A stretch of DNA of 64,000 bases from Raja brachyura. Taxonomy: Eukaryota. This document shows positions 14,957 to 61,572 of this stretch, piece after piece. Each line of letters begins with the position of its first letter. Position 1 is the first letter of the stretch. Under the pieces are notes generated by a model that was not told the origin of the DNA, made no database searches, and was given only the letters and a program-made list of their open reading frames with translations. The translations under genes and the position numbers were made by a program. Where the stretch lies: assembly GCA_963514005.1 (NCBI GenBank), contig OY740802.1, positions 14,818,001 through 14,882,000 of the forward strand, in the 5' to 3' direction.

Positions 14957-15116
14957 AAGACACAAAAGTGCTTGAGTAACTCGGTGGGTCACGCAGCACC
15001 TCTAGCGGACATGGATAGGTGATGTTTTGAAGAGGAGCCGCAAACTGAAATGTCACCTATCCATATTACCAGTGCTGCTACCTGACCTACTGAGTTACTC
15101 CAGCACTCGGTGTCTT
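14957..15116. mobile_element. Palindromic Penelope-derived short element (hammerhead cores degenerate)
   Basis: Inverted arms GACACAAAAGTGCTTGAGTAACTC ... GAGTTACTCCAGCACTCGGTGTC. Confidence 0.7.
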
Positions 15117-15289
15117 TTTAATTGTGAAAGACTGTCTCCAGTCTCTCCCGGAATGCGGAGTAGTGCACAGAAGTGGGCTGCCTTCCTCACTATGTCCATG
15201 CAGGCTGTTTGGTCCATCCATCTACACTCATTCTATTTTCTTGCACTCGATCTGTATCTTTCTATGCTTTGCTTTAAGTTCCTCTCTAA

Positions 15290-15900
15290 ATGTTTTTGAA
15301 ACCTATCTGATTGCACCACCACCTCTGGTAGCATGTCCCAGTTATCAATAACTTTTTTATAAAGTACATTTCCTCACAAATCCTCTTAACTCCTTTTACC
15401 CCACCTTAAACCTGTGCCCATTTGTTTATGGTATCCATATCATTGGAAGGGGGTTGGGGAGAATTTCTGGCATTTGCCCAATTCTGACGTCTACTCAATG
15501 CGTATACCTCTCAGATCACTCCTATGCACCAGATAAGCTAAATCCAGTCTATCCAATCACTCCCCATAACTAAAGACGTCTAATTTGCACATTCTGGTGA
15601 ATCTCCTCTACACGTTGTCGATGCAACCTGTCCTTTCTTTTGTGACTACTGGAATTACAATAATGCTCCTAAATGCATATCTTCTAAATGTGCGACATAT
15701 TTTCCCAACTTATACCATATGCCAACTTCACGATCTACCTGTGCTGAAATTTTCCGGGAAATGTGGACTTGAAGCCTAGCTCTGTTCATCAACAATCCTT
15801 AGCATCCTGCCATTTACAGTATATCTACTATTCTTATTTGACTTCCTGATTCTATTGTTTCCACCTCTCCCTAGTATGAGTTTCCGATCGTTTCTCACTG
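15290..15900 (-). mobile_element. Highly degraded CR1-like LINE fragment
   Basis: Scattered reverse-complement matches to the CR1 ORF2 3' part (e.g. ccttaaacctgtgccc, cattctggtgaatctcctct). No open frame. Confidence 0.45.
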
Positions 15901-16651
15901 CACTGCAGCAAAGTTTTTTGTTTTCTTTGCATTCCTTCTTGCAATGTGACGTTTGGTCCAATTTTTGTCCCCTTCCAATGTCACAATTACCTCTGCCGAC
16001 ACTCCTCTCTCAATGCCTCAGTTTTGGATCTAGCAAGTCTCTCAACAATTCCCAGCTCGAGTAGTGTTGTGGATCTAAGAGGATGATGAACCTGTCTTTT
16101 CTGTGTTCTCTTAGTTGTTTTGTCTGCCTGTGGAGCCATCTTACTATCAGATCATACCTTCCCCATAGCTTCTGTTTCAATCCACAAATGACGGGTCTGA
16201 GTCCAGTCTCGAATGTGCTTCCATTGTAAACATAACGATGTGATGTGACTTTTTTTTAAACTCCACTCCAGCTGTGAAGTCTGACACTGGAGCTGCTTTT
16301 GGGCAAAAGCCTAGCTTTTGTTCAACACTCTTGAGGCTTTTTAATGTTTCAAACTTTAGAGACTTGTGTATGGCTTATCTGGCAGTATTTTTCCTGTGTT
16401 TGTACAATCAATGGCATAAGCACCATGTAGTACACGTTTGCCCATACAGAGCTCTGAAGATATAAAGGTTGCTTGGAAGTAAGACAACTATTCTTTTATA
16501 TTGATCACTCGTATAAAGAAATGTACAAAACAATGCAGGAATTTTCTCTTGCAGAATAAAAAAATCTTTCTTTCATGAAGTTAATAAAATTCAGTCCAGT
16601 GGGGAACGCAAAATCCATTGAGGAAATAAACAAATTAAATGTTGACTTGTT

Positions 16652-16744
16652 GACATAAATGCTGGAGAAACTCAGCGGGTGAGGCAGTATCTATGGAGCA
16701 AAGGAAATAGGCAACGTTTCGGGCCGAAATCCTTCTTCAGAAGG
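16652..16744 (-). mobile_element. Single arm of the palindromic family with a minus-strand hammerhead motif (16709-16741)
   Basis: Minus strand reads CTGAAGA-A-GGATTTCGGCCC-GAAA-CG-TT-GCCT. The core is intact, with one stem II mismatch. Confidence 0.7.
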
Positions 16745-17734: not shown

Positions 17735-17912
17735 GTTTAAGAAAGAACTGCAGATGCTGGATAAATAGAAGGTGTACAAAAATGCTGGATAAACTCAGCG
17801 GGTGAGGCAGTATCTATGGAGCGAAGGAATAGGTGATGAAATGGCTCCTATTTCCTGCGCTCCATAGATGCTGCCTCACCCGTTGAGTTTCTCCAGTGTT
17901 TTTGTCTACCTT
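17735..17912. mobile_element. Palindromic family copy with the centre (both hammerheads) deleted
   Basis: Arms AACTCAGCGGGTGAGGCAGTATCTATGGAGCG and CGCTCCATAGATGCTGCCTCACCCGTTGAGTT. Confidence 0.8.
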
Positions 17913-19573
17913 TATTTTCTCTCTGCTAGGGATGCTAACGCCCCCGAACTATGGTCTGCAGTGTGTGAGAATTATACAGCTTATGGCAATGATAAACCAA
18001 TACCTGTACAAAGGTGCAATGGAAAATGTTTGTTTTGCATGATATCGAGGGAAATCATATCCGACATGAGTATAACAAGTAGTGCAAAGTGGAAAGGAAA
18101 CAGATTGTAGAATATAGTGTTACAGCTGTGGAGTCAGATAATGTTTTTTTTTAAAGTGCTAACAAGTTGGATTGAGAGATCACGAATATGTCCTTTGTGT
18201 AAGAGAGCTCCGTGGTAACCGTTGGGAAGAAGCTGTTCTTGTTTTCATTCATTTCACCATCTACATCTCTATTTCCTTTTCCCCTGACTTTCAGTCTGAA
18301 GAGGGGTCTCATTCCTTTTTTACACAGATCCTGAGCTATTCCAACATTTTGTGTCTAACTTGCATTTGGTAATAAGGTTTTCCAAGCCTTTGTATCTATT
18401 GCTTGATATGGGGTGGGGGGGGGGGGGGGGGGAGGGAAGAGAGGAGTGAGCGTGAACAGTTCTTGATTACGTTGACTACTAGAGGCACTGGCGTGGCTTT
18501 CTTGGCCCAATCTCAGTGTAAATTCTTGGGTTCATTTATATAAGGTCACTTGTAGCAACTTTGTACGAAATCATCAAGTTTATTTTCAGGTTGTTTATTG
18601 CCTAACACTACAAGCCATTAATGGTAACATCTCAATAAAGGAGCAAATGACCCTGAATAGAGTCTGAAAGATGAATTTGCATTTTGAGGCGGGGACTATT
18701 GAATCTCTTCCAGGAAATTTGGCACTTTTCTAAGCAAAAGAAAAGTTAGAGCAAAATTATGGAGTAAGTTTTGAGTTACTTAAGCAAAAAATAGACACAA
18801 GAGATAGGCCTAATAGTGGTCTGTGCAACATGTGGCTTAATAATTTATACTGAATGGATGGTTCTGTTTGTGAAGGGGTGCTGCTTTGCCAGCTAATCAT
18901 AAACCTGTCAGTTTTAATTTGAAAGTCTTATTAGATTCTATGCATTCTTTTATTGCTCCCTTTGGATCATTTAATTTAAAAAGAGGTTTAGATCGTTGAA
19001 TTGTGTTTGCATTTTTTTTAATGGGAGGGGCAGTGTGTGGTTCTGGTGCCTCTTGTGGAATGTGGCACTAACACATCTCAATCCCGTAGCACTTGCAGTT
19101 GTATTAGTCACTTGCTATTCGGATACTCGCAGGATACAGAGGCCGATGTATGGTGCTTGTGTTTTTCCTAAAGCAAAATTGATTTATGCTACAATTTTGA
19201 AAAGTTTTATTTTCCCAGCAGAAGGGTGTGGGAACTCGGTGAAAGTAAAGTATTGGTTCAACATCATCCTTGTTGAGTCCCTCCCCCTCCTGCAGTCTTT
19301 GGGTTCACCGTCCTGATTCAGAATCAGAATCGCAGTTTCCAATAACTTTTCACCTTTTTTCAGGCACAGGTCAGATATATGGTGAAATGCTCTTCATTTG
19401 TGTGGTTGAATGCAGCTGCAATAACACTTGCAGCTTCTCTGTCTCCTCATCTGTTACTCTAAACATTCACTCCCTCCACCACTGTGGTAATGTGCACCAG
19501 TTAACAGACCATCTATAAAATGCTGAAGAAAGAACTGCAGATGCTGGAAAAATCGAAGGTAGACAGAAATCGA

Positions 19574-22400: not shown

Positions 22401-23269
22401 TTTGAGTTTAGTTTATGGTCATGTGACGAAAAATGTATAATGAAAAACTTGTTAAAGACAATACACAATTACTATCGAGCAATCAAAATGTACAGATACT
22501 TGATAAAGGGAATAACGTGAATGATAAAGGAAATATCGTGTTGGGAATCGGATGGAAAAGAAGATTTGAGGTGCTTTGTCAAAATCTTACTAAATGTTAG
22601 AGCAAGTACCTTGCCATTGAGCACAAGTCAGTGTAAGCTTAAACTATTCTCGTTTCTAGAATAAACTCTGTAATATGCATACTGTTATTTGTTTTTTAAA
22701 TGCTATCCTTGTGTGCAATGTTCTCTATTTCCATCAGGCACTGTTCCATGCAGTTTGTTTTCTTCACCCTGTTTCTGCGTTTGTGGTGAATCACAGAAAG
22801 GACTCTATTGAATGCTATAATGTACAAGCCATGTCTTGGAAAAAGAACTGCAGAGGCTGATGACCTATTTAAAATGCTACAGGGCTGCCCACAGTATTTT
22901 ATTACAGTATCAATGGCCTTTGTCATCCATGCTTCAACAAAAGTATTAGAATTTTAATTCAGATACTTCATTGGAATTGCTTTAAAGCTGTCAGAAATCC
23001 TTTGCCAATAGATAAAAGTGAACATGCCAAATATTTCAGTCAAGAGTATTTAATTGTCATGCACTGGGATGAGAACAATGACATTCTTACTTGCTGCAGC
23101 CTTGTAAGCTGGTTCAGAGTGGGGAGTAGTGGAGATAATTGTTGTTACGATCTTGGAGTCCTTTAGCCAAAGAGAAGGCACATTTACAACTTTTTCTAAT
23201 CTGAAGATGGCTGAAATTGTAAATGAACTATTCATCGGAAGCAACTAATAGGTAGCTGATAGTAATGGG

Positions 23270-23375
23270 GGGTACACAAAATGCTGGAGAAACTCAGCGG
23301 GTGCAGCAGCATCTATGGAGCGAAGGAGATGGGCAACGTTTCGGGCGGAAACCCTTCTTCAGACTGATGGGGGGG
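23270..23375 (-). mobile_element. Single arm of the palindromic Penelope-derived family
   Basis: GGTACACAAAATGCTGGAGAAACTCAGCGGGTGCAGCAGCATCTATGGAGCGAAGG followed by the hammerhead module. Confidence 0.8.
23331..23366 (-). ncRNA. Minimal hammerhead ribozyme motif (best-preserved copy)
   Basis: Minus strand cagt-CTGAAGA-A-GGGT-ttcc-GCCC-GAAA-CG-TT-gccc has all conserved core residues (CUGAnGA, GAAA, UH), a 4-bp stem II, and palindromic AACGTT in place of stem III. Stem I is only about 2 bp. Activity untested. Confidence 0.55.
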
Positions 23376-23984
23376 TCTAGCTGATAATAATGGATGGATT
23401 GGACCAGAATAATTAATTTTTCTTATTTCTGTTACATCATTTGAAACCACTCATTATGTATAGTCTGGTGTCCCAGATGATGTGGAACAAATTTAATGAA
23501 ACTGAGTATGTGTCTATTCTAAGTACATCAGTAATTTAATGCTCTACTATATCTCGTAACCTGGTCAGTTAATTTTGCTATACTATCCATGAAAATGCCA
23601 GGTTTAAACATGTTGCCTATTTGCTGATCTTGCTATCTTGCACCCCCTTACGGTGAATGTGTGAGAGTGTTAGATGAGGGAGGATAAGATCCTGATTTGC
23701 TTGATACACTCATACCAGACCATTTTAATACACGAGGAATAGCTATTGGGGCTGAAGCAGAACCTTATTAAATTGTGCCCCAGATAGAAATGGTGGGAGA
23801 TGATTTGAGGTGACTGGTTTTGGGAAGAAATACTTTGTTCTGAATGATTCAAGTATTGCCATTGTGTATATGACGGGGGGGGGGGGGCACTGGTCTATTT
23901 TTAAATGACGACAGGAGAAATGGGTGTAAAATAGAAAATAAACAAGTGCAGAACCTGGTGATACAGCTGCAGAGAGAAACCAAT

Positions 23985-26434: not shown

Positions 26435-26630
26435 GTGACACAGGAGTCTGCAGATGCTGGAATATAGAGGAAATGCAAAATACTGGAGGAACTCTGCAAG
26501 TCAGGCAGCATCTGGGGATTGAATGGACAGGCACGCTTTGAGCCTGAACCTATCTTTGGGCCCAAAACATTGTCTATCCATTCCCTCTCAATTTGCTGTC
26601 CGGCCCACTGATTTCTCTAGCACTTTGTAC
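26435..26630. mobile_element. Old diverged palindromic family copy
   Basis: CTGCAGATGCTGGAAT..CTGGAGGAACTC..CAGGCAGCATCTG arm with a diverged inverted arm ending CTAGCACTTTGTA. Confidence 0.6.
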
Positions 26631-30434: not shown

Positions 30435-30637
30435 GTTTAAGAAGGAACTGCAGATGCTGGAAAATCAACGGTAGACAAAAATGCTGGAGAAACTCAGCGG
30501 GTGAGGCAGCATCTATGGAGCGAAGGAAATAGGCAAAGTTTCGGGTCAAAACCCTTCTTCAGAGGGTTTCGACCCAAAGCGTTGCCTATTTCCTTCGCTG
30601 CCTCACCCGCTGAGTTTCTCCAGCATTTGTGTCTACC
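30435..30637. mobile_element. Near-complete palindromic family copy; minus-strand hammerhead core at 30531-30563
   Basis: Long inverted arms. The minus strand reads CTGAAGA-A-GGGT-tttg-ACCC-GAAA-CT-TT. The plus-strand motif lacks CTGAAGA and has GAAA changed to AAAG. Confidence 0.85.
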
Positions 30638-31539: not shown

Positions 31540-32470
31540 ATCCCCATGACTTCCAAGTCTGCAATTCCATCACCCTCCATATTCAATGGATTGCTTCCCG
31601 TGTACTTTCGTCATACCACCAGAAAACACATTGTCCCCTGTTCCTTTCATTATCATTTGGAACATTCTTGATTGCCCCACAAACCATTGCACTGGCCTTG
31701 CAAGTGCTGGAGATGCTGTGCCATTTCCTCTTCCTCAAGGCCCCAAACACTCCTCCCAAGTGAAGCAATAGTTAACTTGGGTGGAACTTAGCACAAGATC
31801 TCTTGCACTGTTAACTTGAGGAACTGCAACCACCTTATCTTTTCATTTACACCACATTTATTCTGAATTCAAATTGAGTTTGCAATTTTAGAATACGCCT
31901 ACTACTTCCATTAACTACTCGCAACCTTTTTTCCTATTATTGTTGTGTTTAGTTTAGAGACACAATGTGGAAACGGGTCCTTCGTCCCACCGTGTCTGCA
32001 CCGACCAGTGATCCCCGCACATTAACACTATCCGACGCACACTCGTGACAATTTACACTTGTACCAAGCCAATTAACCTACAAACCTGTACGTCTTTAGA
32101 ATGTGGGAGGAACGGAGAGAATGTACAAACTCCGTACAGACAGCACCCGTAGTCGAGGTCGAACCCAGGTCTCTGGTGCTGCAAGCGCTGTACGGCAGCA
32201 ACTGTACAACTGAGCCACCGAGCCACCCTCTAGCATGGACATTGGTTTTAATACTTCTGTCATTCTACTCAATAGTGTCCATTCTGTACTTAATTCTCCA
32301 TTCCACACAGTGCAAACTGCCCTCTCCCAATTGACTTATTTCTTTCTTTGCATTGACTAATAAATTGCCTATCAAAATTCTTCCAGTTCTACAGGAGGGA
32401 ATTTGACCTGAAAACATTTTTCTCTGCACAGATGCTGCTCAGTCAGCAAAGTTGAAACATTTGTTTTATT
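31540..32470 (+). mobile_element. Decayed Penelope-like retroelement 3' portion (ORF remnants plus terminal repeat), split by a SINE
   Basis: Frameshifted remnants in the order I recall for vertebrate PLE ORFs: TLHIQWI..FRH..HI, QGPKHSSQVKQ, LEE..HLIF, IEF..FR. These are followed at 32370-32470 by a degenerate single copy of the hammerhead-bearing arm (gacctgaaaacatttttctctgcacagatgctgc). Confidence 0.55.
31947..32228 (-). mobile_element. HE1/V-SINE-like SINE
   Basis: Minus strand GGGTGGCTCGGTGGCTCAG..CCTGGGTTCGACCTC..GCTGTCTGTACGGAGTTTGTAC, with a tail ending CTCTAAACTAAAC. Confidence 0.85.
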
Positions 32471-32524: not shown

Positions 32525-32622
32525 CAGTCTGTCTGAAGAAGGGTCCCAACTCAAAATGTTGCATATCCATGTTCTCTAGAGATGCTGCCTGACCAGCTGA
32601 GTTACTCCAGCATTCTGTGTCC
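32525..32622 (+). mobile_element. Single arm of the palindromic family (plus-strand hammerhead, GAAA changed to AAAA)
   Basis: gtCTGAAGAAGGGTCCCAACTCAAAATGTT..GAGATGCTGCCTGACCAGCTGAGTTACTCCAGCATT. Confidence 0.75.
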
Positions 32623-33371
32623 TTAAGTGGCAGTCAGCTTGTTTAGAAGTTAGTAAAAACCTATTGTGATGTGTTTAGTAATATTTCAACTGAAATTGAA
32701 ATAAGGGCTTTTTAAGGGGGGGGGAAAAATGTTAGTGAACATTTAATATTTATCACCAGCTTCATGTCTACTGAGACTTTTGGATAAAGTATTCGTGCAA
32801 TGGTGGTGCAAAACAACTTGGACAATAACTTAAGTGTTTTTTCTATTGCAAACCATTAAGATGCTGTTAAAGAGAAGTTGGGTTTAACTTGCATTTGGAC
32901 AGTTGGTGCTTTATCATTACGATTGCAAAATCCAGTGAGCTCCAAAGAGGGAAAAAAAGAGTCAAATAAACAGGTCTCCATTTCAGTAGAAGCCACTGCA
33001 GAAATGAATGTTTACTGAGTTCTGTGATGAGCTGTCCTCTGGTCTATAAAGAGCAACTTGATTCAGATTTTCTAATCTTTGTTCCCGACATTTATATAGC
33101 AGTGGAAAGTAATTCTATGTATGTGGAAAGTGTTACTGTTTTGATTATGGTTAGACAAGTAGTTCCAACGTTTTTTGTTTTTTTTAAAGTGCTAAAGCAT
33201 AATTTTAAACCAGATGTTTGTGGAAGAGTGACAATTTTGATTCAGTTTTTGAATGCTCTGTGTTCTGCTTTCAGCATTTGGAACTTCTACATCACTAAGT
33301 GCAAGGAAAGGGACAAGCCAGGTGCTCAAGCTTGAAATCGAAGCTCTAAGGCTTTCTATTGTCTCAATGTG

Positions 33372-41740: not shown

Positions 41741-41889
41741 NNNNNNNNNNNNNNNNNNNNNNNNNNNNNNNNNNNNNNNNNNNNNNNNNNNNNNNNNNNN
41801 NNNNNNNNNNNNNNNNNNNNNNNNNNNNNNNNNNNNNNNNNNNNNNNNNNNNNNNNNNNNNNNNNNNNNNNNNNNNNNNNNNNNNNNNN
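41741..41889. other. Assembly gap (149 N)
   Basis: Run of N in znf217 coding intron 1. Confidence 1.
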
Positions 41890-43764: not shown

Positions 43765-44075
43765 CTTTTACAACAGGTAATGTTGTTGCCTCAATTCTCC
43801 AGTGACCAAGTTTGATGCTGACATCTAGTGCTGGCTATGTGGAGTCTTTACCTTCACCATGTGACAGTGTGGGTTTCCTCAAAGTGGTTGGTTTACTCCC
43901 ACATCATAAAGTTTGTATGTTAGTTGAATATTGTAAAGTATCCCCAGTGTGGCTGGGCTGGGTAGGAGAATTGGGAAGTGGATGGGAGTATATGCATGTG
44001 AAAGACTACAAGATCCAAGGAAACCAGCAGAGAATTCCAGTTGTGTAGATTCAGTGGGCTGAGTGGTCTTAATTT
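43765..44075 (+). mobile_element. Old plus-strand HE1/V-SINE-like copy
   Basis: GGTAATGTTGTTGCCTCA..CTATGTGGAGT..GTGACAGTGTGGGTTTCCTC..GGTTTACTCCCACATC..CAGTGGGCTGAGTGGTCT. Confidence 0.6.
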
Positions 44076-44273
44076 TGTAAAGTTATATAGAATTTAAAAC
44101 ATTTTACAGTCCATCTTCAATATTTTCATGATCCATTTATCTTGTCATTCTTAAATGTACTTTATAAACTTTCTTTGTTGTAGATAGAATGTGTATTGAC
44201 TCACTCTTTTGGATTAAGATAAAGTTGCCAGATATATGGATGCGATGATTTGGGAGGAGAGATGGACGATTAA

Positions 44274-44441
<168 letters not shown>

Positions 44442-44605
44442 TGAAATAGTTGCATTGGTTGCAAAGCTACAAAGGAACGTTGGGTTGAGCATGGTGGGTC
44501 GAAACCTACACACATATATAATTTCCTCAAGTATATTAAAGGGGAGACCTTTACAGTCGGATCCCCTTTGTCACTCTACCACTAACAGTTGCCCAGTTTT
44601 TGCCG

Positions 44606-44700
44606 AAGATAGTCCCAAAAAGCTGGAGCAACTCAGCGGCTCAGACAGCATCTCTGGAGAAAAGGAATAGGTGACATTTTGGGTCGAGACACTTTCCTTC
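44606..44700 (-). mobile_element. Single arm of the palindromic family (hammerhead degenerate)
   Basis: GCTGGAGCAACTCAGCGGCTCAGACAGCATCTCTGGAGAAAAGGAATAGGTGACATTTTGGGTCGAGAC. Confidence 0.75.
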
Positions 44701-45086
44701 CTGTTTTTTATTTGTTCACTGCAGCATAAAGAGGAATATCGAAACATGTTGAATATCTGTAACCACAAGCACTGTGTTTACTGCTATGTTGAGGTAAAGG
44801 CCTAATGAGCAAAATCGGTTTTAGTTTACATCATTATTTTAAAGCAGCGCGGTCATTCTTAATGTAGATGGTGATCCATTTTATTCTCATACTATCGGTT
44901 AACCCACCTCTCTGTAATCCTGTTTCACATGTCCTGCTTTCCTATTAACAATTGAATAATAGTCTTTTCTCAAAGCTGCTTAATTTTGAACTAATGCTCT
45001 CTAGTCTTGTGCAGGACCTCCATCCTGCCTTTCATTTGTATTTATTTTTAAGTAATTGTTCATATATTATATTTTATTATAATAAA

Positions 45087-45378
45087 AGAGTGCAGAACAG
45101 GCCCACTGATTCTGCACCGACCAGCAATCCTTGCACATTAACACTATCCTGCACACAATAGGGATAATTTACATTTATACCAAGCCAATTAACCTACAAA
45201 CCTGTATGTCTTTGGAGTATGATGTGAGAGGAAACCAAAGTTCTTGGAGAAAACCCATGTAGGTCACGGGGAGAACGTACAAACTTCATGCAGCCAAGCA
45301 TCCGTCCAAGGCCGGTCAGGATCGAACTCGGGTCTCTGGCGCTGTAAGGCAGCAACTCTACCGCTGCACCATCATGCT
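45087..45378 (-). mobile_element. HE1/V-SINE-like SINE
   Basis: Minus strand TGGTGCAGCGGTAGAGTTGCTGCCTTACAGCGCCAGAGACCCGAGTTCGATCCTGACC..GTTTGTACGTTCTCCCCGTGACC. Confidence 0.85.
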
Positions 45379-45983
45379 CCCCATAACTCAAGTATTTCCT
45401 GTTGACCATTGAAGGCCTCGGGTATGGTCACTCATGAACCTCTTTCCAAAAAATCCATATTCTTATTCGGTTGTTTAACCCAGAATTACGTGCCATGCTC
45501 CTTAATTGGGTGTTCGATTTAAATAGAACTTACTTTGAGTTGCCTTGTGCATCCAGTAGACTTTGCCTTATTACTGCCCCTATGCTTTCAGTCTATTATC
45601 CATCAAGCAATCTTCTGTTCTAACCTTTGCACTTGACCTGTACAATCACCGAAAAAAGCCCTTTGTGTTATGCATTTTTATTGCAACGTACCAGTAATTG
45701 ATTACTCTCCCATTCGTTAAATTAAAATCCATCAGACTACTCCAAACCTTTCCACTTAAATGGGCCATATCTCTATGACAATAAGCAAGGGTTTATTAAC
45801 TTTTGGTAGTAGCTAATTAGTAGTGTGTTATACTCCAAGCTTATTTAGTTAACAACCCACCTCTTCCATCTATTGCCAACTTTCCCTGTTGGCTTTTGTC
45901 ACTCTATTCAATTTCATACATTAATTCAAATGTTTCCTTAGATAGAATTTTCCCCATCATTGATCCCCTGAGAGATTTCATGA

Positions 45984-46257
45984 TCATAGTCATACAGCGT
46001 GAAAACAGGCCCTTCTGCCCAATTTGCCCACACTGACCAACGTGCCCCATCTACACTAGTCCTACTTACCTGCCTGTGTTTGGCCCATATCCCTTTTTAA
46101 ATGTGATAGTACCTGCCTCAACTCCCAACCCCCCCCCCCCCCCCCCCACCCCCCCCCCAGCAGCTCATTCCATATATCTGCCACGCTCTGTTGAAACAAA
46201 AAGCACTTCGGGTTCTTATTGAATCTTTCCCTCTCGCCATAAACCTATGTCCTCTGT
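45984..46257 (-). mobile_element. 3' end of a second CR1 subfamily, containing a poly-C expansion
   Basis: The minus strand ends TTGGGCAGAAGGGCCTGTTTTCACGCTGTATGACTATGA. The upstream part matches the CR1 ORF2 end (AGAGGACATAGGTTTA..CAACAGAGCGTGG..TGGAATGAGCTGC). Confidence 0.7.
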
Positions 46258-46291
46258 GAAACTTCATGAATGATGTAGACAAGTGATATAC

Positions 46292-46562
46292 GTTAGTTTA
46301 GAGATACAGCGCAGAAACCGGCCCTTTGGCCCACTGAGTCTGCTCCGACCAGCGATTTCACCCACACTAGCATTATCCTGCACACTAGGAACAATTTACA
46401 ATTTTACCGAAGCCAATTAACGTACAAACTTGTACATCTTTGGAATATAGGAGGAAACCGGAGCACCCGGAGAAAACCCATGCAGTCATGGGGAGAACGT
46501 ACAAATAACACATTCTTGGCGCTGTAAGGCAGCAACTCTACCACTATGCCACCGTGCCACCC
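46292..46562 (-). mobile_element. HE1/V-SINE-like SINE (internal deletion removes the B box)
   Basis: Minus strand GGGTGGCACGGTGGCATAGTGGTAGAGTTGCTGCCTTACAGCGCCA, with tail GTGGGCCAAAGGGCCGGTTTCTGCGCTGTATCTCTAAACTAAC. Confidence 0.85.
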
Positions 46563-46931
46563 CAAATCCTTTCAAAATAATGGATATGTAGAGTTGGGGT
46601 TACAAATCACATTGAGTGATGGAACATGCTTGCAAAGCTAAATATCCTGTACCTTTTTGTTTATTGTCATGTGTACAGAGGTACAGTGCAAAGCTTTAGT
46701 TGCGTGCTAGCCAGTCAGCGGAAAGACAATAAATTATTACAGTCAAGCCATCTAGAGTGTACAAATATATGATAAAGAGAATAATGTTTAGTGCAAGGTA
46801 AAGTCAGATCAAAGATAGTCCGAGGGTCTCAAATGAAGTAGATAGTAGCTCAGGACTGCTCTCTAGTTGTTGGTAGGATGGTTTAAAATTAGTAAAAATA
46901 TTTAAAATGAGTAAATTATTTTTTGTTTCAG

Positions 46932-48662
46932 GTGAAAAACCCCATCGATGTCCCCTCTGTGACTATGCTGCAGCTCAGAAAACCTCACTTAAGTATCACT
47001 TGGAACGGCATCATAAGGGTGAGCAGAAAAGGACTGAAGAAAAGAATGATCCACTGAAGAATTCATTGACATCTCCAAAATTGGAAGTAGCACCAAAAGA
47101 AAGTGATGAATCTGTTCAGGAATCTCTTCAAGACTCCAAGAGGTTTTTTACAGATTCTTTGGGCGGAGCCAAAGATTTAGATGCGAACTTTCCTCGGGGG
47201 AAACAGAAAAGGATTCTTTCGTCTACTAGTCCAATTTTTCAAAATGCCGAGTTTTCAAATATGAGTAGAGAATTCCCGGACCTGAAGATCCATCACGGTC
47301 GACGAATCTTCTGCAGTGCACTGTTGCCAATGTCGCCAATGTCTCACGCTGAGAAATCAATGGATGAAAAGTTGATAGTTGAGTTCCAGAGATGTAACTC
47401 TGATGCAAAGGCTATTATCGAACTTGACGATTCCAATGTTGTGGAGGAAAGCTCAATGGAGGAACTTGCAGAAAACTATACGCAACAGAATAATGCTAGA
47501 AGTATGAAGGTGGAACCCATTCCTATAAATGACCAATGCTATATTAGTACTAGACGTAACAGGGAGGACTACTGTGATAAGTATGAATTCAGTTTATTGG
47601 AAAAGCCTTTGAATCTTTGTACCACAATATATCGGCAAAGCCTGTGCAGCGCTGGTAGTCCTCAGGGAAATGTATCTACCTCATTTTCCAAGAGTGCCTT
47701 ACTGAGCAATGTGTGCCCATTTTGTACCTACAGAACTTTGTACCCAGAGGTCTTAGTGATGCACCAAAGGTTGGTACACAAATATATTCCTGAACCGAGT
47801 TCGATAAATGGATTTCGAAATGCTTTTCATAGTGGGTCACTTAAAAGCAGACGCACTGGATGCCCTCCTGCACTATTAGGTCAAGATGTTTCTTCTTTGC
47901 TTGCCACCAAAGAAATGAGCAAAAGGTTTTCTCGTCGGACCAATTCGCCATTACCAGCAGCTCCAACTGATGCTTCTGACTTGCTACCTGGAAAGGCAAA
48001 ATTATCATCTTCCTCACACCAGTCCCTGTGCAATAATCTCCTTCCCTCTGCAGCAGAAGCTAGATCTTCCAGTGACTTTAATGCCTTCAAGATGACCCAG
48101 AGTCCTAACATGCAACTTGAAAGCTATGGATCTATACATTCTGAAACAAGGCAGATGCCAGAGGTGGTGCAAAAAGCAGAAAGGAATGGTTCTTCAGAAG
48201 CTGGTACCAGTAAGAGAAATGTGTCTGAAAAGTCTGGTACTAAATTGGACTATGAATCTGATGGACCCAGGGAACATTTGTTTAGATATGATGGTCATTG
48301 GGCTCCCAATGTTAGCAAAATGTGTCTTACTAATATATCTGAGAATCAGGGAGGTTTGGACTCGCATGAGCCTACAGCTAAAAGAATGAAAATAAATAGT
48401 CCTTTAAGAAACGATCAGCTTTCATTTGGAATAAGGAGGAGTGTTCAAGGAAGAAATATAAAATTATCTCAGGAGATGTCCCCTCTTCAGGCAAGAAGCA
48501 CAGGGATATCGACTAAGCCAGGATCAGCCTTGGATTCAAATGGAATTGATTCTCGTTGGAATGTATTGAAAATTTTGAATTCCTACAACCCACAAGATCT
48601 CGCTTCACTGTACAGTACTTGTGGACCCAGTAACAGTAGAGATACTAATATTGCTCAAGAAG
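46932..48662 (+). CDS. znf217: znf217 coding exon 3 (1731 bp; fingers 9-10, CtBP-binding PLNL and RRT motifs)
   Basis: Acceptor ttttgtttcAG|GTGAAAAACCC gives GEKPHRCPLCDYAAAQKTSLKYHLERHHK. Also contains KPLNLC (PLNLC at 47606-47620), CPFCTYRTLYPEVLVMHQRLVH and RRTGCPPAL (47849-47875). Donor GAAG|GTACGA at 48662/48663, phase 1. Confidence 0.93.
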
Positions 48663-51396
48663 GTACGAATGATTTGTTAAATTTTACTTCAGACACTTTA
48701 AATCAATATTGTATGAAGGTATTTAAAATGGTTTCTGAAGGCTGAGTGTTGAGATTTCTAAATAGGAACCTAATGGAGATTTAATTCCGGGGAACCAAAA
48801 GTAGTTAATGTTGCTTAAAATGGCCATTCTGGTAATTTTGCGCAGTCCCAGGGGTCTGATTTTATTTTCATCCAAGGTGCCACCGACTAAAGCAGTGTTA
48901 TTTCTAATTTTGCAGTCTTTTTCACTGTAATCCCACCTGCCCTCACATAGTATCCTGAAACCAAGTACAAGCACGACAAACTAGTTTGGCTTTCAAATGA
49001 CTCTAGTGTTTCAGTCATCAGCTACACACTGACCACTTTTTATTTGTTTATTCTGTTTGAGGAATTTGTAAAATATCACTACCATTATAAAATATCGTAT
49101 GGACAAACATTAAGCAAGAGATGTGTTTTATTGTCATATGTCCCAGATAGAACAATGAAATTATTGCAGCAGCACAACAGAATATATAAACATAGTACAC
49201 TATAAACTGTATAATACATGAGAAAAAGTTCAGTGTGTGTATATATACGTGCACGCACACGCATATCTATGTAGTTCAGAGCTTATTGAAGGTTGTAATG
49301 TTTAATAGCCTGATGGCTGTAGGTAAGAAGCTGTTCTTGAACCTGGATGTTACAGTTTTCAGGCTCCTGTACCTTTTTCCCGATGGTAGGGGTGTGAGTG
49401 TGTGGTCAGTGCGGTGAATACCCAGGGAGCAGAACATATACCTAAAACAAATCGGTGTTTACACGGCCTGAACGGCTGACAACGCCATCTGCTTTGCGCC
49501 GGCAACTTCTTCGTGATTGCCTCTGTACTTGTCCACAAACTGCTGATCTTTAGTTGTGTTGAAGTCAATTATTGACTTGCAAATGTGATGGATTAAATGA
49601 AGATTCATATTAAATCTGCAACATCAATCTTCCGATTAAATGTGTGGCATCTCTGTATTGGAGGGCTGGAAATTGGTAAGATGCAAGTCTGAGGACTAAT
49701 CACTGCTAAATCTTTTAACAGCATTCCCACTAGAAATAATATTGAATGAGAGGTCTCACGGACCCAACTTTCAGTTTGCACTTGCTAACGTAGGCAGTAG
49801 GAAATGCTACACGTCTTCAAGCCCAAAGTATCCTAAAGCACTTTGAATTACAAGCAGGCCTTGTTGGTCTGTGACAGAATTCTCCCGGCTGAGTATTGTG
49901 TTGGATGAAAGATCAGAAGTGACATGGGAAATGCATTACACTCAGCAAACTTGATTAGCCCATGATGTTTCCAACCACTGCTTGTTCATCAGGCTTTTTT
50001 TTTTTTTGCCCAGAGGAGACAGGGAAGTTCTGGTGCCACTCATTTCCTGTTATTTTTTGCATCAGTTGCCCCGATCAAGGTGGCGACTTTCCATCTTGCC
50101 TGACTTGCTGGTTGATGTCTGAAAAATAAAGCCAGCTGCTCGGAAAGGATCATGTCTGACAAGACTATGATGCTACTGTAGAGATTTATCAAGCTTGTGG
50201 CTTTTAATTTAATGCAATTTATTCATACTTGCTGCCGTGCACTTTGCAGGGATTGTCAGCACTGGTGACAATGAAGGCTGTCAAATAGTCATATAAGCCA
50301 GAGAAGGGCCCTGGCAGATCAGAAATGCTAATGACATCTTCCTGTCCTGAATTTTAACATGATCATTTTCCCCTGCTGTGTGCTGGTCATATCGCAACTT
50401 GGGATACATATAGGGCATTGAGAGTTGTCAGCAGAGGGTATGGAAAAACTGATTATTTTTGCAAAGCAACTGTTCACATTTTCCAGCCAATTATTTGGTA
50501 TACTTTAAGGATGCAATTGGTTGGATGTGGCTCTGTGTTTATTATGTACAGTGTTTCAGCTTTAGAAGATAGAATTGGTATGCCATTTGTATAACGTCAG
50601 AAAGTCTTCATTCTGAAAACATTGTTTGTATTTAAAAGCCTGTATAGTAATTGGGAGCCTTTGGACAGCCACTATTCCCTGAAAAGAAAAACGTATTTGA
50701 TTTCAGCTGTTGTGCTGGGAAAAGGTGGGGCTAGTTGTTGAAATCAATGTTCCTTTTCATACAATGAGGCAATGGCTGGTTTAACGGCTTATTTTCAATA
50801 ATTTTATATTTTGCAAGATTCGCGCCTATTTCCAAAAGTTCAGGGCTTTTCAAAAGACCATCAGTGTTTCAGAAGAAGGTATTTTAATCTGCCTCCTGTT
50901 CAGTAAAAAGAGCATTAATTTTGTGTTGTTCAGCATTGCAATGATCAATGCTGCCACTAACTATTGTGGCTATGTTGAAGCCAGACACTCCTTCATTATA
51001 CTGTTCTAAGTCTCTTGAAGCTTTATGACATATCAAAAATTGCCATTTGGGAAAAGTACAGTGCCCTCCATAATGTTTGGGCCAGCCTCATCATTTATTT
51101 ATTTGCCTCTGTACTCCAATTTGAGATTTGTAACAGAAAAAAATCACATGTGGTTAAAGTGCACATTGTCAGATTCTAATAAAGGGTAATTTTATACATT
51201 TTGGTTACACCATGTAGAAATTACAGCTGTGCTTATACATAGTCCCCCCCATTTCAGGGTACCATAATGTTTGGGACGCATGTCTTCACAGGCATTTGTA
51301 ATTGCCTCCTTAATGCAGGTATAAGAGTCTCTCAGCACCTAGTCTTTCCTCCAGTCTTTCCATCAGATTTGGACATTTCTATTGCTGTTTATCAAC

Positions 51397-52319
51397 ATGA
51401 GGACCAATGTTGTGCCAATGAAAGACAAAGTAGCCATTATGAAACTGAGAAACAAGAATAAAACTGTTAGAGACATCAGCCAAACCTTAGACTCACCAAA
51501 ATCAACTGTTTGGATCATCATTAAGAAGAAAGAGAGCTCTGGTGAGCTTACCAATCGCAAAGGGACTGGCAGGCCAAGGAAGACCTCCACAGCTGATGAC
51601 AGAAGAATTCTCTCTATAATTTAAAACAAACAAACACCTGTCCGACAGATCAGAAACACTCTTCAGGAATCGGGTGTGGATTTGTCAATGACCACTGTCC
51701 GCAGAAGACTTCATGAACAGAAATACAGAGGTTACATTGCAAGATGCAAACCACTGATTAGCTTATATCAGAGTGATGGCAAAAGCAAAGTATGGAGGAG
51801 AGAAGGTACTGCCCAATTTCCAAAACATACCACCTGTTCTGTGAAACACATTGGTGGGGGGGGTGTTAAGACCTGGGTTGTGGCTGCTGAAGGTACTGGC
51901 TCACTTATCTTCATTGATGATACAACTGCTGATGGTAGTAGCATAATGAATTCTGAAGTGTATGGACACATCCTATGAAACAAATGCCTCAACTCATTGG
52001 CCGGCGGTTCATTCTACAGCAAGGCAATGATCCCAAACGTACTGCTAAAGCAACAAAGGAGTTTTTCAAAGCTAAAAAAATGTTAATTCGTGAGTGGCCA
52101 AGTCAATCACCCAATCTGAACCCAATTGAACATGCCTTTTATATGTTGAAGAGAAAACTGAAGGGAACTAGCCCCCAAAACAAGCATAAGCTAAAGATGG
52201 CTGCTATACAGGTCTGGCAGAGCATCACCAGAGAAGACACCCAGCAACTGGTGATGTCCATGAATAGCAGACTTCGAGCAGTCATCATTACATGCAAAGG
52301 ATATGCAACAAAATACTAA
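51397..52319 (+). pseudogene. Tc1 transposase pseudogene
   Basis: Paired-like HTH (TVRDISQTLDSPKSTVWIII), GRPRKT, TVRRRL, VKHIGGG, QQGNDPK and WPSQSPNLNPIEH. Broken by stops and frameshifts. The segment carrying the first catalytic Asp appears deleted and QDND is changed to QGND. Confidence 0.9.
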
Positions 52320-52535
52320 ACATGACTGCTTTCATTTACATGACATTGCTCTGTCACAGACATTATGGTGCCCTGAAATGGGGGATTGTATAAACACTAC
52401 TGTAATTTCTACATGGTAAAAACAAAATATATAAAAATTGCATTCATTAAAATCTGACAATGTGCACTTTAACCACATGTGATTTTTTTTTAAATTACAA
52501 ATCTCAAATTGTGGAGTACAGAGGCAAATAAATAA

Positions 52536-53117
52536 ATAGAAATAGGTGCAGGAGGAGGCCATTAGGCCCTTCGACCCAGCACCTCCATTCATTGTGATCA
52601 TGGCTGACCGTCCGCTATCAATAACCCGTGCCTGCCTTCTCCCCATATCCCTTGACTCCACTAGCCCCCTAGAGCTCTATCCAACTCTCTCTGAAATCCA
52701 TCGAGTGATTTGGCCTCCACTGCCCTCTGTGGCAGGGAATGCCATCAATTCACAACTCTCTGGGTGAAAAAGTTTTTTCTCACCTCCGTCTTAAATGACC
52801 TCCCCTTTATTCTAAGACTGTGGCCCCTGGTTCTGGACTCGCCCAACATTGGGAACATTTTTCCTGCATCTAGCTTGTCCGGTCCTTTTATAATTTTATG
52901 TTTCTATAAGATTTCCCCCTCATCCTTCTAAACTCCAGTGAATACAAGCCTAGTCTTTTCAAGCTTTCCTCATATGACAGCCCCGCCATCCCAGGGATCA
53001 ATCTTGTGAACCTACGCTGCACTGCCTCAATCACAAGGATGTCCTTCCTCAAATTAGGAGACCAAAACTGTACACAATACTCCAGATGTGGTCTCACCAG
53101 AGCCCTATACAACTGCA
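52536..53117 (-). mobile_element. CR1 LINE 3' fragment inserted in the Tc1 right TIR
   Basis: Minus strand [27 protein letters not shown] through the CR1 3'UTR. The TIR sequence AGGCAAATAAATAAAT resumes as AAATGATG after the insert. Confidence 0.92.
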
Positions 53118-54104
53118 CTATACAAATGATGGGTCTTTGTCCCAAACATTATGGAGGCACTGTATCAGCCTATATAGTAAATGTCAATGGGATGCTTGAA
53201 GGAAGCACTAGCTAATTCAATTTTTGCCACTATCCTGAGAGGGACCACTCCAATGTGAATTAGGTGAGCCAATTTTCTTGGTGAAAAAAATACAATTTTA
53301 TGATTTACAACTTTATGCTCCCATATATCTAAAAGATTAAATATAACTTTGGCAAGAGCTATATCCCTTGGAATGAAGCTGGCATGATTATGACAGCTAT
53401 CCGCAAAGGTTTTAAATGCCAGCAAAGTTATTTTCAAAAACTGTATGATCAGAATCATGTCAGTTAATTGGGTAACTTAAGTTAAAATAAGTGTCGCCCT
53501 AGATTCAGTCGGTATCTGACCTTGGTCTTAATTTTACGTACATTCATACAAACAGTCATCTCCATGTGCCGTACAAAAGCAAATGTAATTTGCATTCCAA
53601 TTTGAGTTTTATGGAAAAGGCAGTGTCGGAGAAGATTGGCTTGGTGCCCAAATGAAGGAAGGGTTGGTAGGTTGTTTTCTAACAACTCTGCGGGAAGTGC
53701 ATGTGGGTTCTGCTTGGTTGAGGACCTAATGGGCCTATATGGTCAAGTATCCAGATGCTCCTGTGGTCTAAAAGCTGGTCGGAGTTAATATGATTAATAG
53801 CCCCTTGAAAATGTAATTGCTCTTCCATATCTTAGCATGCAAATGGCTTGACCATCAAACCTGAGAGTTAAATTCATTAAGGTCTAAGCATTATTTTTTA
53901 TTCTTTTGAATATTGTAATGGTGCATTGTACCACACTTTATTTGCTTTTGGCTTAAATCTAAATATTGAGTGTTTACTAATTCACAAAGACATAAGGGTT
54001 TCCTGACAAAGATTGATCTTAAATTATTGCCATTTTCCCTCTGGAGATGACAAGAAAATAATTTATTTTAACCCCCTGGGTAGTTGATATTATTCTCATT
54101 GACG

Positions 54105-54285
54105 ATAGATACAAAAAGCTGGAGTAACTCAGCGGGTCAGACAGCATCTCTGGAGAAAAGGAATGGGCGATGTTGCGGGTTGAGATCCTTCTTCAGACTC
54201 TTTTGTGTCTCAAACCGAAATGCTGAGTTACTCCAACTTCTGTGTCCATCTTCAGTTTGAGCCAGCATCTGCAGATCTGTCATAC
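54105..54285. mobile_element. Palindromic family copy, right arm partly deleted
   Basis: GCTGGAGTAACTCAGCGGGTCAGACAGCATCTCTGGAG..CCTTCTTCAGACT..GCTGAGTTACTCCAAC..CCAGCATCTGCAG. Confidence 0.8.
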
Positions 54286-54380
54286 ACCACAGGTCAGCTA
54301 GTTCCATCCTTGCCTTCACATTTAATCTGGATCGATAGTGTGATTTATAGCTTGGGTGCAGATAATGTGGTGAATGACCG

Positions 54381-54715
54381 AATAGTGAAAGGCTTGACTA
54401 GAGAGGATGTTGCCACTAGTGGGGGAGTCCAGGACCAGATGTCATATCCTCAGAATAAAAGAACGTTCCCTTAGGAAGGAGATGAAGAGGAATTACTTAG
54501 TCGGAGAGTGATTCATTGCAACAGAAGACTGTGGAGGCCACATCAATGGATATTTTAAAGGCAGAGCTAGATAGATTCTTGATTAGCATGGGTGTCGCGT
54601 TTTAGGGAGAAGGCAGGACAATGGGTTGAGAGGGAGAGATAGATTAGCCATGATTTGAATGGCAGAGTAGACTTGATTGGCCAAATGGCCTAATTCAGCT
54701 CCTATTACGTATGAA
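54381..54715 (+). mobile_element. Diverged CR1 3' fragment
   Basis: GGGGAGTCCAGGACCAGA..CTCAGAATAAAAG..GATTAGCCATGATTTGAATGGCAGAGTAGAC..AATGGCCTAATTC. Confidence 0.8.
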
Positions 54716-55112
54716 CCAGTTGTTTATCTTGCTCTTTTTTGTTTAAACTGTCAATAGACTAGTAAGCACATTAAAAATGAATGAAAACAATATTTTAATG
54801 CTGATATATCTAGAATAGTGTTTTGTGGGCACCCTCCTCTTTTGAAAATGTAACCTAGATTGTTACTGAATTTAATTCAAAATGTCTTAAAAGTGTTTCT
54901 TTGTTTTATTTTTGGAGAATTGGATTTGCATAAAATCCTTGTCTTTTAATAAGTGTAACATGTGGGCATTTATTGAAATGTAGGGACTTGTATTCTAAGT
55001 AATCTTGGCATTCTCTACTTTTTTTACTTAGATGGGAAAAGGAAAAGAACCAGACTCAAATGCCATGTTAAACTTTGGGCAGTTGTATCGGTAATTTGAC
55101 ATTAATCGTCTC

Positions 55113-55285
55113 AAGGTAGACACAAAATGCTGGATTAACTCAACGGGACATTTCGGGTTGAGACCCTTCTTCAGACTCTACCCAAAACATCACCCATTCC
55201 TTCTCTCCAGAGATGCTGCCTGTCCCGCCGAGTTACTCCAGCATTTTGTGTCTACCTTCAACTAGCATCTGCAGTTTTTTCCTAC
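55113..55285. mobile_element. Palindromic family copy; minus-strand hammerhead core at 55145-55177
   Basis: Minus strand agt-CTGAAGA-A-GGGT-ctca-ACCC-GAAA-TG-TC. The plus-strand motif is truncated. Ends about 120 bp before the last coding exon acceptor. Confidence 0.85.
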
Positions 55286-55407
55286 ATATTTATCATCTCA
55301 AAGTGTGTATGATGGCCAATTAATAACTTTAAATTGAAAGCTTGGCAAAGGATGGCGATTTAATCAGCTTTTAACAAATTTGTGTTTTTTACATTTTTTT
55401 TTAAAAG

Positions 55408-55514
55408 GGAAGAGGTCGCTCCAATATCTACAACATTCTAACAGTACGTCACAAAAGCGGAGCATTAATCACACTCTTGGTGGATCTTTAGACAAAGAGT
55501 ACATGACCCATTGA
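55408..55514 (+). CDS. znf217: znf217 last coding exon (GKRSLQYLQHSNSTSQKRSINHTLGGSLDKEYMTH*)
   Basis: Poly-T tract then aaaAG| acceptor. The phase-1 translation resembles the human ZNF217 C-terminus GKRPVSYQHLSNSMAQKR. TGA at 55512-55514. The exon continues to a donor AAG|GTAATT at 55530/55531. Summed CDS is 3723 nt = 1240 aa plus stop. Confidence 0.85.
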
Positions 55515-59400: not shown

Positions 59401-60440
59401 CTAAATTGGCTATTCACAAGTATGGTCAACTGGGTGAAGGGGATTGATACTTTAGGATTGCAGGCAGTTTTTTATGAAGTGAATGAAGCTTTTGGCTAGC
59501 ATTTAGTTTTCTTTAGAATTGAACTAATGGTGTTTTATTTTAATAGACTAGTTCAAAGCAATCTTTGTTTTTGAGTGAAAGGATCTTGAATGTGCAGCAT
59601 CCATAGAATGTTGCAATGTCCGCCAGCTCGTAACTGCTGCTGACATAATGAAGCCATTGGACAAATGTACACTTCTCAAACTGTTTAATAGCTGTTCGGC
59701 TGATGGGCGGCTAAGGTTTATAAAAGTAAATTCATTAAAACTCCTTTCAACATTCCAGTGGTGATATGAATAAAGTATTAGCTATGCAGTGGGAGAATGT
59801 GTTCACGTGTGTATGTGTTTGGTTTAAATATTTGCCCAAACACTTCATGTAAAGTATCTGAATGGTGACGCATTTTACCAAGATCCCAAACTCTTAATAT
59901 TCTAGGGGGGGGGGGGGGGGGGGGGAAGAGAACTGCCCAATATACTGAGCATTTTTTGAGTTGCTTGGGGTTTGTAATGTTGACACTACTGACCTCCTAT
60001 GACCATTGGTTCTGATGTTTTTTTCCTTTTTACCAACCTCAACCTCTGGAGAAGACTGAGCCATGTGTAATTATGCGAGAAAATGTTTTGTAGTTGTACT
60101 ATTATAGTGCATTTTTGACATTGTTGTGCAGAAAATACTTGATTACAAGCGAAATGTTGCTTGATTATTCCAGATTATAAAATTATTGCTTGCGGGTGCA
60201 TGCTCAATTTAATTAATTTCTATAATATAAAATTTTGGACATTATCATTTGCAATGACATTTTTAGGGAATTCACATACATGATTTTTGTTTTGATCGCT
60301 CAGTGTTACTTTATTAGAAGTTTGCAGTTGGCCGCACTCTGATATGCATATTAAGGTGTCTTTTATTTAATTCAGTTTTCTTTTTGTATTTATTACATGT
60401 TTGGACCTTTCTGATTTCCTTAAAACCATGTTTAACCATA
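56477..60440 (+). other. znf217: Probable terminal non-coding exon / long AU-rich 3'UTR of znf217 (3' end uncertain)
   Basis: Acceptor ttttctaacatttttgtgtgctcttaaccttAG| ending 56476, downstream of an unpaired donor at 55531. The following sequence is repeat-poor and U-rich, with AATAAA at 56959, 58168 and 59769. Confidence 0.5.
59135..59301 (-). mobile_element. CR1 3' tail fragment
   Basis: Reverse complement of the CR1 3'UTR, including the TTCTATGT-type tail (TAGAAACATAGAAAATAGGTGC). Confidence 0.85.
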
Positions 60441-61314
60441 CAAGTGTTTCATGCTGTCTTTAATTTATAATGTACCATTGTTTGATGTACATTCATTCAA
60501 TTTTGGAATACATTTGGTGTTTTACATCTCTGGTTCTGTTGAAGTTTTTTTTATTCTCCTTGGAAATTATTGTTGCAGTTTGTCTGTGTGCAAAATTTTA
60601 TTTTCCAATGATTTCACTGCTACAGCCTTTCGTTCCAATTTCCAGATTGTGTCGCTTTCTGAAGTTTGTCACCGTGTAAATTTTCACGGAAGTGTCAGGC
60701 ATACTTTGAGTTGAAAACATGTTGAGTTGCACGTCCATTAGTTTCTCTATTCAGCAAAAATATAGGTTTTGAATTAAAATAGTACATAATGACAGACAGT
60801 ATTTGCAGAAAATATTGGATAGAATATTTTATGATTCAATAACCTGATCAGAGGCTCTGCAATACGCCAGCAAATGCAAATAAGTCAGCATAATATTTAA
60901 TTGAGCATATGCCAAGCTTTAAACAATGTACCAATTCATCTGCATATGTCTTAAGATGGTGGGAGCTTGTGCACTAGGATTTATCCACCATCTATGGAAT
61001 AGCATTGAAATGTGAGTAATAAAACTCATGAAATTTAAATCCGTTTGCTTTATCAACTCATCCCATAAAACAAATATTGCTTATAACTGCTGCTGAGATG
61101 TAAAATGTTACTGGTCCACTCATTCAATCTTAAAATAAATAGACGTGATTTGGGGCTTTAGTTTTTTTTTAAGATCTAATTCATCTTTTTAATTTTGAAC
61201 TTAGTTTGAAAGCAGTAGCAATATAAACTTCACAGTGGGTATACATTCAGGGATTGGTTAAGTAAGGAATGGAGAATATGCAACTATAATGTTAAAAAAA
61301 AACAAAAATAGCCT

Positions 61315-61572
61315 GTGTAGGAAGGAACTGCAGATGCTGGTTTAAATTGAAGATGGACTCAAAGCTGGAGTAACTCAGCCGATCAGACATTATTTCTGAA
61401 AAAAAGGAATAAGTGATGTTTTGGGATAAGACCCTTCTTCACTCTGAGTCGGGTTTTCCTTTCCACTGGCTCGGTCTGAAGAAGGGTCCCGACCCAAAAT
61501 GTCACCTATTCCTTTTCTCCAGAGATGCTGCCTGACCTGCTGAGTTACTCCATCTTTTTGCATCTATCTTCA
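61315..61572. mobile_element. Full-length palindromic family copy with a central spacer
   Basis: Both arms plus a spacer. The plus-strand motif ggt-CTGAAGA-A-GGGTC-cc-GACCC-AAAA-TG-TC-acc (61473-61506) shows stem I (GGT/ACC) and stem II but has G12 changed to A. Confidence 0.85.

Follow-up and report, generated by a model that had tools for sequence, protein, structure and literature searches.

A dense family of short repeats, two-armed or single-armed, in the genome of the skate Raja brachyura very probably consists of insertion products of a Penelope-like element (PLE), and the hammerhead motif carried by its arms is, with comparably high confidence, ancestral to the repeat and now a relic, its ribozymes almost all dead. 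The window analysed is a stretch of 64,000 nucleotides (nt) of contig OY740802.1 (assembly GCA_963514005.1, positions 14,818,001 to 14,882,000 of the forward strand), in which a preliminary description made from the letters alone had listed 16 loci of a Penelope-derived, retrozyme-like family with minimal hammerheads on both arms; positions below count from the first letter of this window. Each arm corresponds to the last 60-145 nt of a pseudo-long terminal repeat (pLTR), comprising a minimal-hammerhead motif, ~65 nt downstream of it and an optional tail of ~35 nt. As a whole, the observations are best explained, and probably correctly, by PLE terminal-repeat insertions with two-strand priming and subsequent neutral decay, the origin of the palindromes from two-strand priming being in itself slightly favoured.

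Detection of the family

An arm profile built from 17 arms detected 25 segments at E<0.01, eight of them outside the training set, and none in each of 20 dinucleotide shuffles. The repeat was recovered at all 16 loci named before, which upholds the dispersed family as first listed (Table 1), and it covers 2,388 bp (3.7%) of the window at a density of about one copy per 4 kb, a single insertion measuring 90-260 bp over its whole length. Two arms are present at nine of the 16 loci, one arm at six, and a tail fragment only at 19.5 kb, where the piece is detectable only with a tail-inclusive profile (E=8e-5); a profile of this type also gave a weak 17th locus at 32.4 kb (E=0.045). Among the arms, two or more subfamilies can be distinguished. 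The alignment of 23 arms referred to below leaves out 35.3R, 19.5 and 32.4.

Beyond the window, arm translations match, at up to 85%, RefSeq gene models of Leucoraja erinacea (P0121, P0138, P0144), and also model P0123; the repeat pieces in these four models are probably mis-predicted exons. Of 63 proteins bearing the repeat, at least 13 have an arm in antisense immediately upstream, a count from which the tandem-repeat matches P0125, P0141 and P0142 were dropped as probably unrelated and two bacterial matches were left out. No stray copies were found by two motif scans of prokaryotic genome contigs or by BLAST against phages and plasmids, and six repeat motifs sought in the full text of papers gave no match. 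Literature searches, most subscription journals being outside their reach, found neither a published description of the family in skates or sharks nor one of twin priming in Penelope elements. So abundant a repeat probably already sits in repeat libraries.

Anatomy of the insertions

All nine two-arm copies are arranged head-to-head, with the 3' ends outward and the hammerhead ends meeting in the middle. Target-site duplications (TSDs) of 10-16 bp, with 54-71% A+T, flank eight of the 16 loci (permutation p=1e-5 overall); at six loci the match beats all 240 mismatched flank pairs, and two more reach p~0.02. Three solo arms (16.7, 23.3 and 32.5 kb) are bounded by a TSD of their own, so that single arms, previously regarded as exposed halves of palindromes, are mostly primary insertions. 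The tail of ~35 nt stands on exactly one side in seven of the nine two-arm copies (two of them partial) and on both sides in none. Outer 3' ends fall into two zones ~35 nt apart, at alignment columns +87..+102 or +129..+131, the latter for five full tails, and the outer ends of tail-less arms share their zone with the 3' ends of solo arms. The variable-length TSDs, the one-sided tail and the TSD-flanked solo arms together indicate a PLE rather than a MITE (miniature inverted-repeat transposable element), in agreement with the origin first proposed.

At the inner ends, the 5' starts of all 23 aligned arms lie between -26 and +24 relative to C3, that is within 50 nt around the hammerhead, and the nine two-arm copies have nine different centre junctions, also within a subfamily. 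All aligned arms extend 5' of the cleavage site, and a cleaved template would start at +28; cleaved RNA as the template was rejected, since none of the 23 arms begins at the cut site, indicating that the template was uncut RNA. At 54.2 and 55.2 kb, each arm has sequence missing from its partner. At four tail ends (17721-17736, 30423-30437, 61301-61315 and 55285-55290), the last TG or TGT of the target overlaps the terminal ACA of the element, suggesting a pairing of 2-3 nt at priming.

The hammerhead as a relic

The consensus at the inner arm ends is that of the hammerhead core, as first described. It agrees with the published minimal hammerhead ribozyme (min-HHR) of PLEs in the extra base after A9, the G10.1-C11.1 pair and the palindromic 15.2-16.2 pair (PMC4209133). 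A relaxed core pattern has four matches in the window; in 500 shuffles, the mean was 0.02 and the highest count 1. Ribozymes on both arms, as given in the initial account, were not found: all 11 invariant core bases are kept in four of the 23 aligned arms (16.7L, 23.3L, 30.5L and 55.1L), and the core is never intact on both arms of a two-arm copy. For the 61.5 kb arm, the reported stem I with GGT/ACC pairing is present, its third pair being formed by a G unique to that arm, yet this arm shows G12>A and no longer has the CG palindrome. The third pair results from one of two A>G differences, close to each other, by which 61465-61475 (+) departs from the other arms; chance or RNA editing could have produced them.

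The published Cervera descriptor (core boxes, stem II of at least 3 bp, stem I of at least 3 bp) gave no match in the window because stem I of the family is only 2 bp; relaxed to a 2-bp stem I, it gave one match, 23.3L on the minus strand. Some published min-HHR examples likewise have a 2-bp stem I (PMC4209133). Searched with Rfam covariance models, neither the window nor 23250-23420 matched a hammerhead family at E<=10; the only matches were sub-threshold microRNA-type hairpins and other weak ones.

Among 17 arms, stem II is 81% paired, and none of its four pairs shows a two-sided change. The covariation score of 0.125 compares with 0.122 for shuffled alignments, 197 of 500 shuffles equalling or exceeding the observed value, at the low power that 17 related arms afford. 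The apparent variability of the stem II loop, which had been read as change with pairing kept, is decay and not covariation. Nor is the core conserved beyond its surroundings: in 14 arms of two subfamilies, mismatches amount to 14/107 in the core and 85/854 in the arm body (p=0.31), or 9/94 and 69/787 outside CpG sites, so that the core decays as fast as the arm body, which speaks for neutral decay. Of the two CpG dinucleotides of the core, one reads CA in 9 arms, CG in 8 and TG in 3, the other TG in 8, CA in 7 and CG in 5, decay having gone in both directions, and G12 is lost in 9 of the 20 arms having both bases of its CpG.

For 23.3L, the best-preserved arm, folding predicted a probability of 0.04 for stem II and 0.004 for stem I, tertiary contacts lying outside the model. 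A 23.3L homodimer with the hammerhead fold was rejected, the predicted dimer showing another fold. A strand bias of intact cores was also discarded (4/8 on the minus against 0/4 on the plus strand, p=0.21, not significant). With at most one weak candidate in 64 kb, a major source of self-cleaving motifs, as had been suggested for the family, is not supported.

Several further observations concern the motif. The intact cores at 16740, 23362, 30562 and 55174 (-) are all antisense to the host gene ZNF217. A lone hammerhead-like core outside the family, at 49967-49992 (-) and without stem I, is consistent with chance. A pyrimidine-rich sequence upstream of the core is common to 18270-18295 (+) and 61456-61475 (+), closing at 18.3 kb with a CAG that resembles a splice acceptor and ends one base ahead of C3; the Penelope element of Drosophila has an intron whose end is at helix I (PMC4209133).

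Proposed mechanism and alternative explanations

PLEs are described with inverted, 5'-truncated pLTRs, a tail of 30-40 bp at one end and TSDs of 8-10 bp (PMC8557442; PMC3846280). Nicking and extension of both strands have been shown for the purified PLE protein of Anolis; it starts at two sites lying on either side of the tail, and its template is uncleaved RNA, ribozyme cleavage not being needed (PMC11167929). By the mechanism proposed here, a PLE protein would nick both target strands 10-16 nt apart, and these staggered nicks would leave two 3'-OH ends, either able to prime complementary DNA (cDNA). Priming of reverse transcription at one nick would produce a solo arm. Priming at both nicks on uncleaved RNA, often from the two different start sites, would produce two cDNAs, and the joining of their truncated ends would create a new head-to-head palindrome, tailed on one side and with a junction of its own, inside a TSD. 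The inserted copies would then undergo neutral decay, beginning at CpG sites, and hairpin double-stranded RNA (dsRNA), not cleavage, would be the route of any effect on host RNA.

Several points weigh against this account. Neither a parent element nor a PLE reading frame was found; no PLE-type reverse transcriptase (RT) or GIY-YIG domain occurs in the 58 repeat-bearing proteins scanned. TSDs are absent at seven of the 16 loci and borderline at one, and their boundaries were chosen after viewing the sequences, with the same slack of ±8 nt in the nulls. The one-sided tail pattern is by itself not significant (P=0.14). The arms of one copy are not always mutual closest matches, and a rare variant is common to both arms in only three of eight pairs. 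Later centre deletions could also diversify the junctions. A long RNA that is simply truncated would not be expected to yield 5' ends so tightly clustered. That all arms should end inside a 50-nt stretch around the hammerhead is the residual surprise. As to the parent, arm translation led only to repeat-containing gene models and unnamed open reading frames (ORFs) with no PLE RT, and the TSD-bounded inserts, at only 90-257 bp, hold no frame with RT and GIY-YIG as an autonomous PLE would.

A PLE origin could also be combined with another source of the second arm, namely fold-back self-priming or an antisense template, as has been suggested for the Penelope elements of rotifers (PMC3846280). At 26.5, 30.5 and 35.3 kb, the tail arm indeed reaches further 5' than its partner, as fold-back predicts, and overlaps of 1-3 nt are seen by eye at several junctions. 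At 54.2 and 55.2 kb, however, 11-16 nt of 5' sequence in the tail-less arm are missing from the tail arm, so that the former is no copy of the latter unless a later deletion intervened, which is possible as both loci carry other deletions. These two loci favour two-strand priming, since each arm holds sequence that its partner lacks, and fold-back is considered unlikely, if the least unlikely of the alternatives. Somewhat less probable still is a short non-autonomous master RNA, itself palindromic and copied by PLE proteins, with the junctions diversified by RT skipping at the hairpin or by later centre deletions and the solo arms produced by stalls at the centre. It would suit the ending of all arms near the hammerhead with none long, the frequency of two-arm copies here (9/16) and elsewhere (at least 13 of the 63 repeat-bearing proteins), and a weak correlation in where the two arms start (r=0.65, p=0.06; Spearman p=0.5). 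Yet no two of the nine copies have a junction in common, even inside a subfamily, tail-less arms end on their outer side in the 3'-end zone of solo arms, and 18.3R and 61.5R run into a common upstream sequence. The fixed non-autonomous palindromic element envisaged in the preliminary description is doubtful in view of these nine differing junctions.

The family does resemble a MITE in being short, non-coding, dense and composed of inverted arms, nearly symmetric at 15.0 and 36.7 kb, and mobilization by a DNA transposase would render the hammerhead-like sequence incidental or inherited. Against this stand a TSD length that is not fixed but ranges from 10 to 16 bp, solo arms with their own TSDs, asymmetric ends in seven of nine copies, and a centre and size that vary; such an element is extremely improbable, and the variable TSDs, outward 3' ends, one-sided tail and differing junctions exclude an ordinary MITE. 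Hardly more credible is the idea that the family harbours a stock of ribozymes, active or under selection, that cut host RNA. The 23.3 kb arm keeps core, stem II and palindrome, and four arms keep the core, but neither excess core conservation nor covariation was observed, G12 is lost in nearly half of the informative arms, the stems of 23.3L are poorly predicted, the four intact cores are all antisense to ZNF217, and the min-HHRs of PLEs, dimers included, are poor at cleavage (PMC4209133).

A more speculative variant of the PLE account, to which only a small probability is attached, treats the skate hammerhead as mainly a structural signal and not a cutter. Two uncleaved RNAs would pair via the ACGU palindrome, in the fold of a dimeric ribozyme, on a dimeric PLE protein, each would template one nicked strand, and reverse transcription would stop at the paired hammerheads, which would account for the mini-palindromes, the one-sided tail and the arms ending at the ribozyme. 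Under this view, the family would represent a dedicated PLE parasite of ultra-short length, and two-strand priming would be recorded in its copies on the scale of the genome.

Host gene and neighbouring sequence

Among proteins of 321-1022 residues, ZNF217 is most similar to a relative in Callorhinchus milii (67%; others ~50%), and its 5' end was not located. Its introns hold six of the 16 loci; the copy starting at 35185 lies ~54 bp past a splice donor, and the copy ending at 55287 stops ~120 bp before the acceptor of the last exon. The longest predicted helices measure 33 bp (17.8 kb), 32 bp (30.5 kb) and 29 bp (36.7 kb), in keeping with the dsRNA potential first suggested for full palindromes, and it is plausible from these models that two-arm copies in the pre-mRNA form dsRNA. 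Self-cleavage of host RNA is unlikely to matter, the one weak candidate being antisense to the gene.

Table 1. Repeat copies, candidate ribozyme and host gene in the window (positions 1 to 64,000; strand "." for two-arm copies).
Feature	Positions	Strand	Remarks
Two-arm copy, older variant	14957..15117	.	No tail; no TSD found; cores broken
Solo arm	16651..16740	-	All core bases kept, stem II mismatch, no stem I; 13-bp TSD 16638-16650 / 16741-16753
Two-arm copy	17736..17910	.	Left tail; first core box (CUGAnGA) absent from both arms; 15-bp TSD 17721-17735 / 17911-17925
Solo arm, internal deletions	18270..18366	+	Longest 5' extension (26 nt), pyrimidine-rich, common to 61.5R
Tail-only fragment	19521..19570	-	Adjoins piece of another repeat; no hammerhead sequence
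Solo arm, best preserved of family	23269..23377	-	16-bp TSD 23253-23268 / 23378-23393
Sole candidate ribozyme (predicted)	23333..23364	-	C3 at 23362; 4-bp stem II; ACGU palindrome; 2-bp stem I; predicted cut 23335/23334
Two-arm copy, diverged	26448..26628	.	Partial tail, left; no TSD found
Two-arm copy	30437..30637	.	Left tail; left core complete, palindrome broken; right arm truncated; 14-bp TSD 30423-30436 / 30638-30651
Arm remnant, weak, possibly very old	32395..32453	+	E=0.045
Solo arm	32530..32622	+	G12>A; 13-bp TSD 32517-32529 / 32623-32635
Two-arm copy, ZNF217 intron	35185..35412	.	~74 bp of other sequence splits right arm; partial right tail; 10-bp TSD
Two-arm copy, near-symmetric, intronic	36653..36848	.	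No tail; no TSD found
Solo arm, diverged, intronic	38030..38137	-	Tail also diverged
Solo arm, intronic	44602..44695	-	Core truncated and mutated; 9-bp TSD, borderline
Two-arm copy, internal deletion	54098..54287	.	Right tail; left arm A13>C; no TSD found
Two-arm copy	55115..55287	.	Right tail; left core complete, then deletion; TSD ~14 bp
Longest two-arm copy	61315..61571	.	Left tail; G12>A in both cores; 14-bp TSD (9 bp exact) 61301-61314 / 61572-61585
Host gene ZNF217	33336..55505	+	Coding exons ~33.3-35.13, 44.3-44.42, 46.9-48.7 and, weakly supported, 55.4-55.5 kb

Other mobile sequences share the window. An RT of the long interspersed nuclear element (LINE) type at 11050-13481 (+), presumably CR1-like, has an open frame of 781 amino acids (Pfam RVT_1), which, being intact, suggests a young copy; LINE fragments lie at 35614-36359, 52540-53120, 54407-54713 and 59132-59294. 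A Tc1-type DNA transposon remnant at 51093-52537 retains pieces of the transposase and inverted ends of ~185 bp. Another dispersed family, with copies up to ~280 bp long, is found at 14564-14775, 19574-19748, 25904-26093, 31947-32228, 45100-45382 and 46293-46562; we take it to be, probably, a tRNA-derived short interspersed nuclear element in antisense, and ARAGORN reported no tRNA in it. The 19.5 kb tail fragment abuts one of its copies. An unrelated imperfect palindrome lies at 30218-30295, and a 66-bp inverted pair (36519-36584 / 37142-37206) encloses the 36.7 kb copy.

Significance

Inverted repeats and one-sided tails of PLEs have been termed undefined features (PMC8557442), and self-priming has been offered as an explanation (PMC3846280). 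The anatomy of the skate repeat records how PLEs insert, though its copies are probably not working ribozymes. With its dense insertions of 90-260 bp and their readable TSDs, 3' ends and junctions, the family lends itself to a test of the models by comparison with in vitro results on PAc, the Anolis Poseidon element. It is relevant to annotation as well: it resembles a MITE, and RefSeq skate gene models have taken up parts of it; as a ribozyme source it is of little importance.

Comparison with known systems

The closest counterparts are the inverted pLTRs of Adineta Pen2/Pen2a, endonuclease-positive (EN+) PLEs (PMC3846280; scheme in PMC8557442), which are likewise head-to-head, with a tail of 30-40 bp at one end, a TSD round the unit and 5' truncation. 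Compared with these, the skate copies have no ORF between the arms, are 90-260 bp as a whole and occur once per ~4 kb; their TSDs, at 10-16 bp, are longer than the 8-10 bp of the PLE scheme. The metazoan PLE min-HHRs of Cervera and de la Peña share the CUGAnGA box with its extra base, the G10.1-C11.1 pair and the GAAA-CG-UH palindrome, and this 2014 report included genome-wide solo min-HHRs and opposite-strand pairs ~100-700 bp apart (PMC4209133). The skate motif differs in its 2-bp stem I, which fails their descriptor, and in the decay of its copies; no chondrichthyan appears in alignment S3 or table S1 of that paper.

Anolis Poseidon PAc shows two 3'-end zones downstream of the hammerhead, an uncleaved template and AT-rich targets, as here (PMC11167929). 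PAc is autonomous, its ORF starting at stem II, whereas no frame of the skate repeat led to an RT protein. Non-LTR (long terminal repeat) retrozymes, reported also in one chondrichthyan (bioRxiv 10.64898/2026.07.22.740005), are PLE-related and non-coding with a type I hammerhead, as here (PMC7229834; bioRxiv 10.64898/2026.07.22.740005). Retrozymes are, however, described as head-to-tail tandems with a ribozyme per unit and circular expression, and the skate copies are dispersed, inverted or solo; no tandem array of the repeat occurs in the window, and the term retrozyme-like is accordingly dropped, as copies that are not in tandem are not retrozymes. The structure is thus of a known kind, resembling a PLE terminal-repeat insertion and being neither an autonomous PLE nor a MITE nor a retrozyme.

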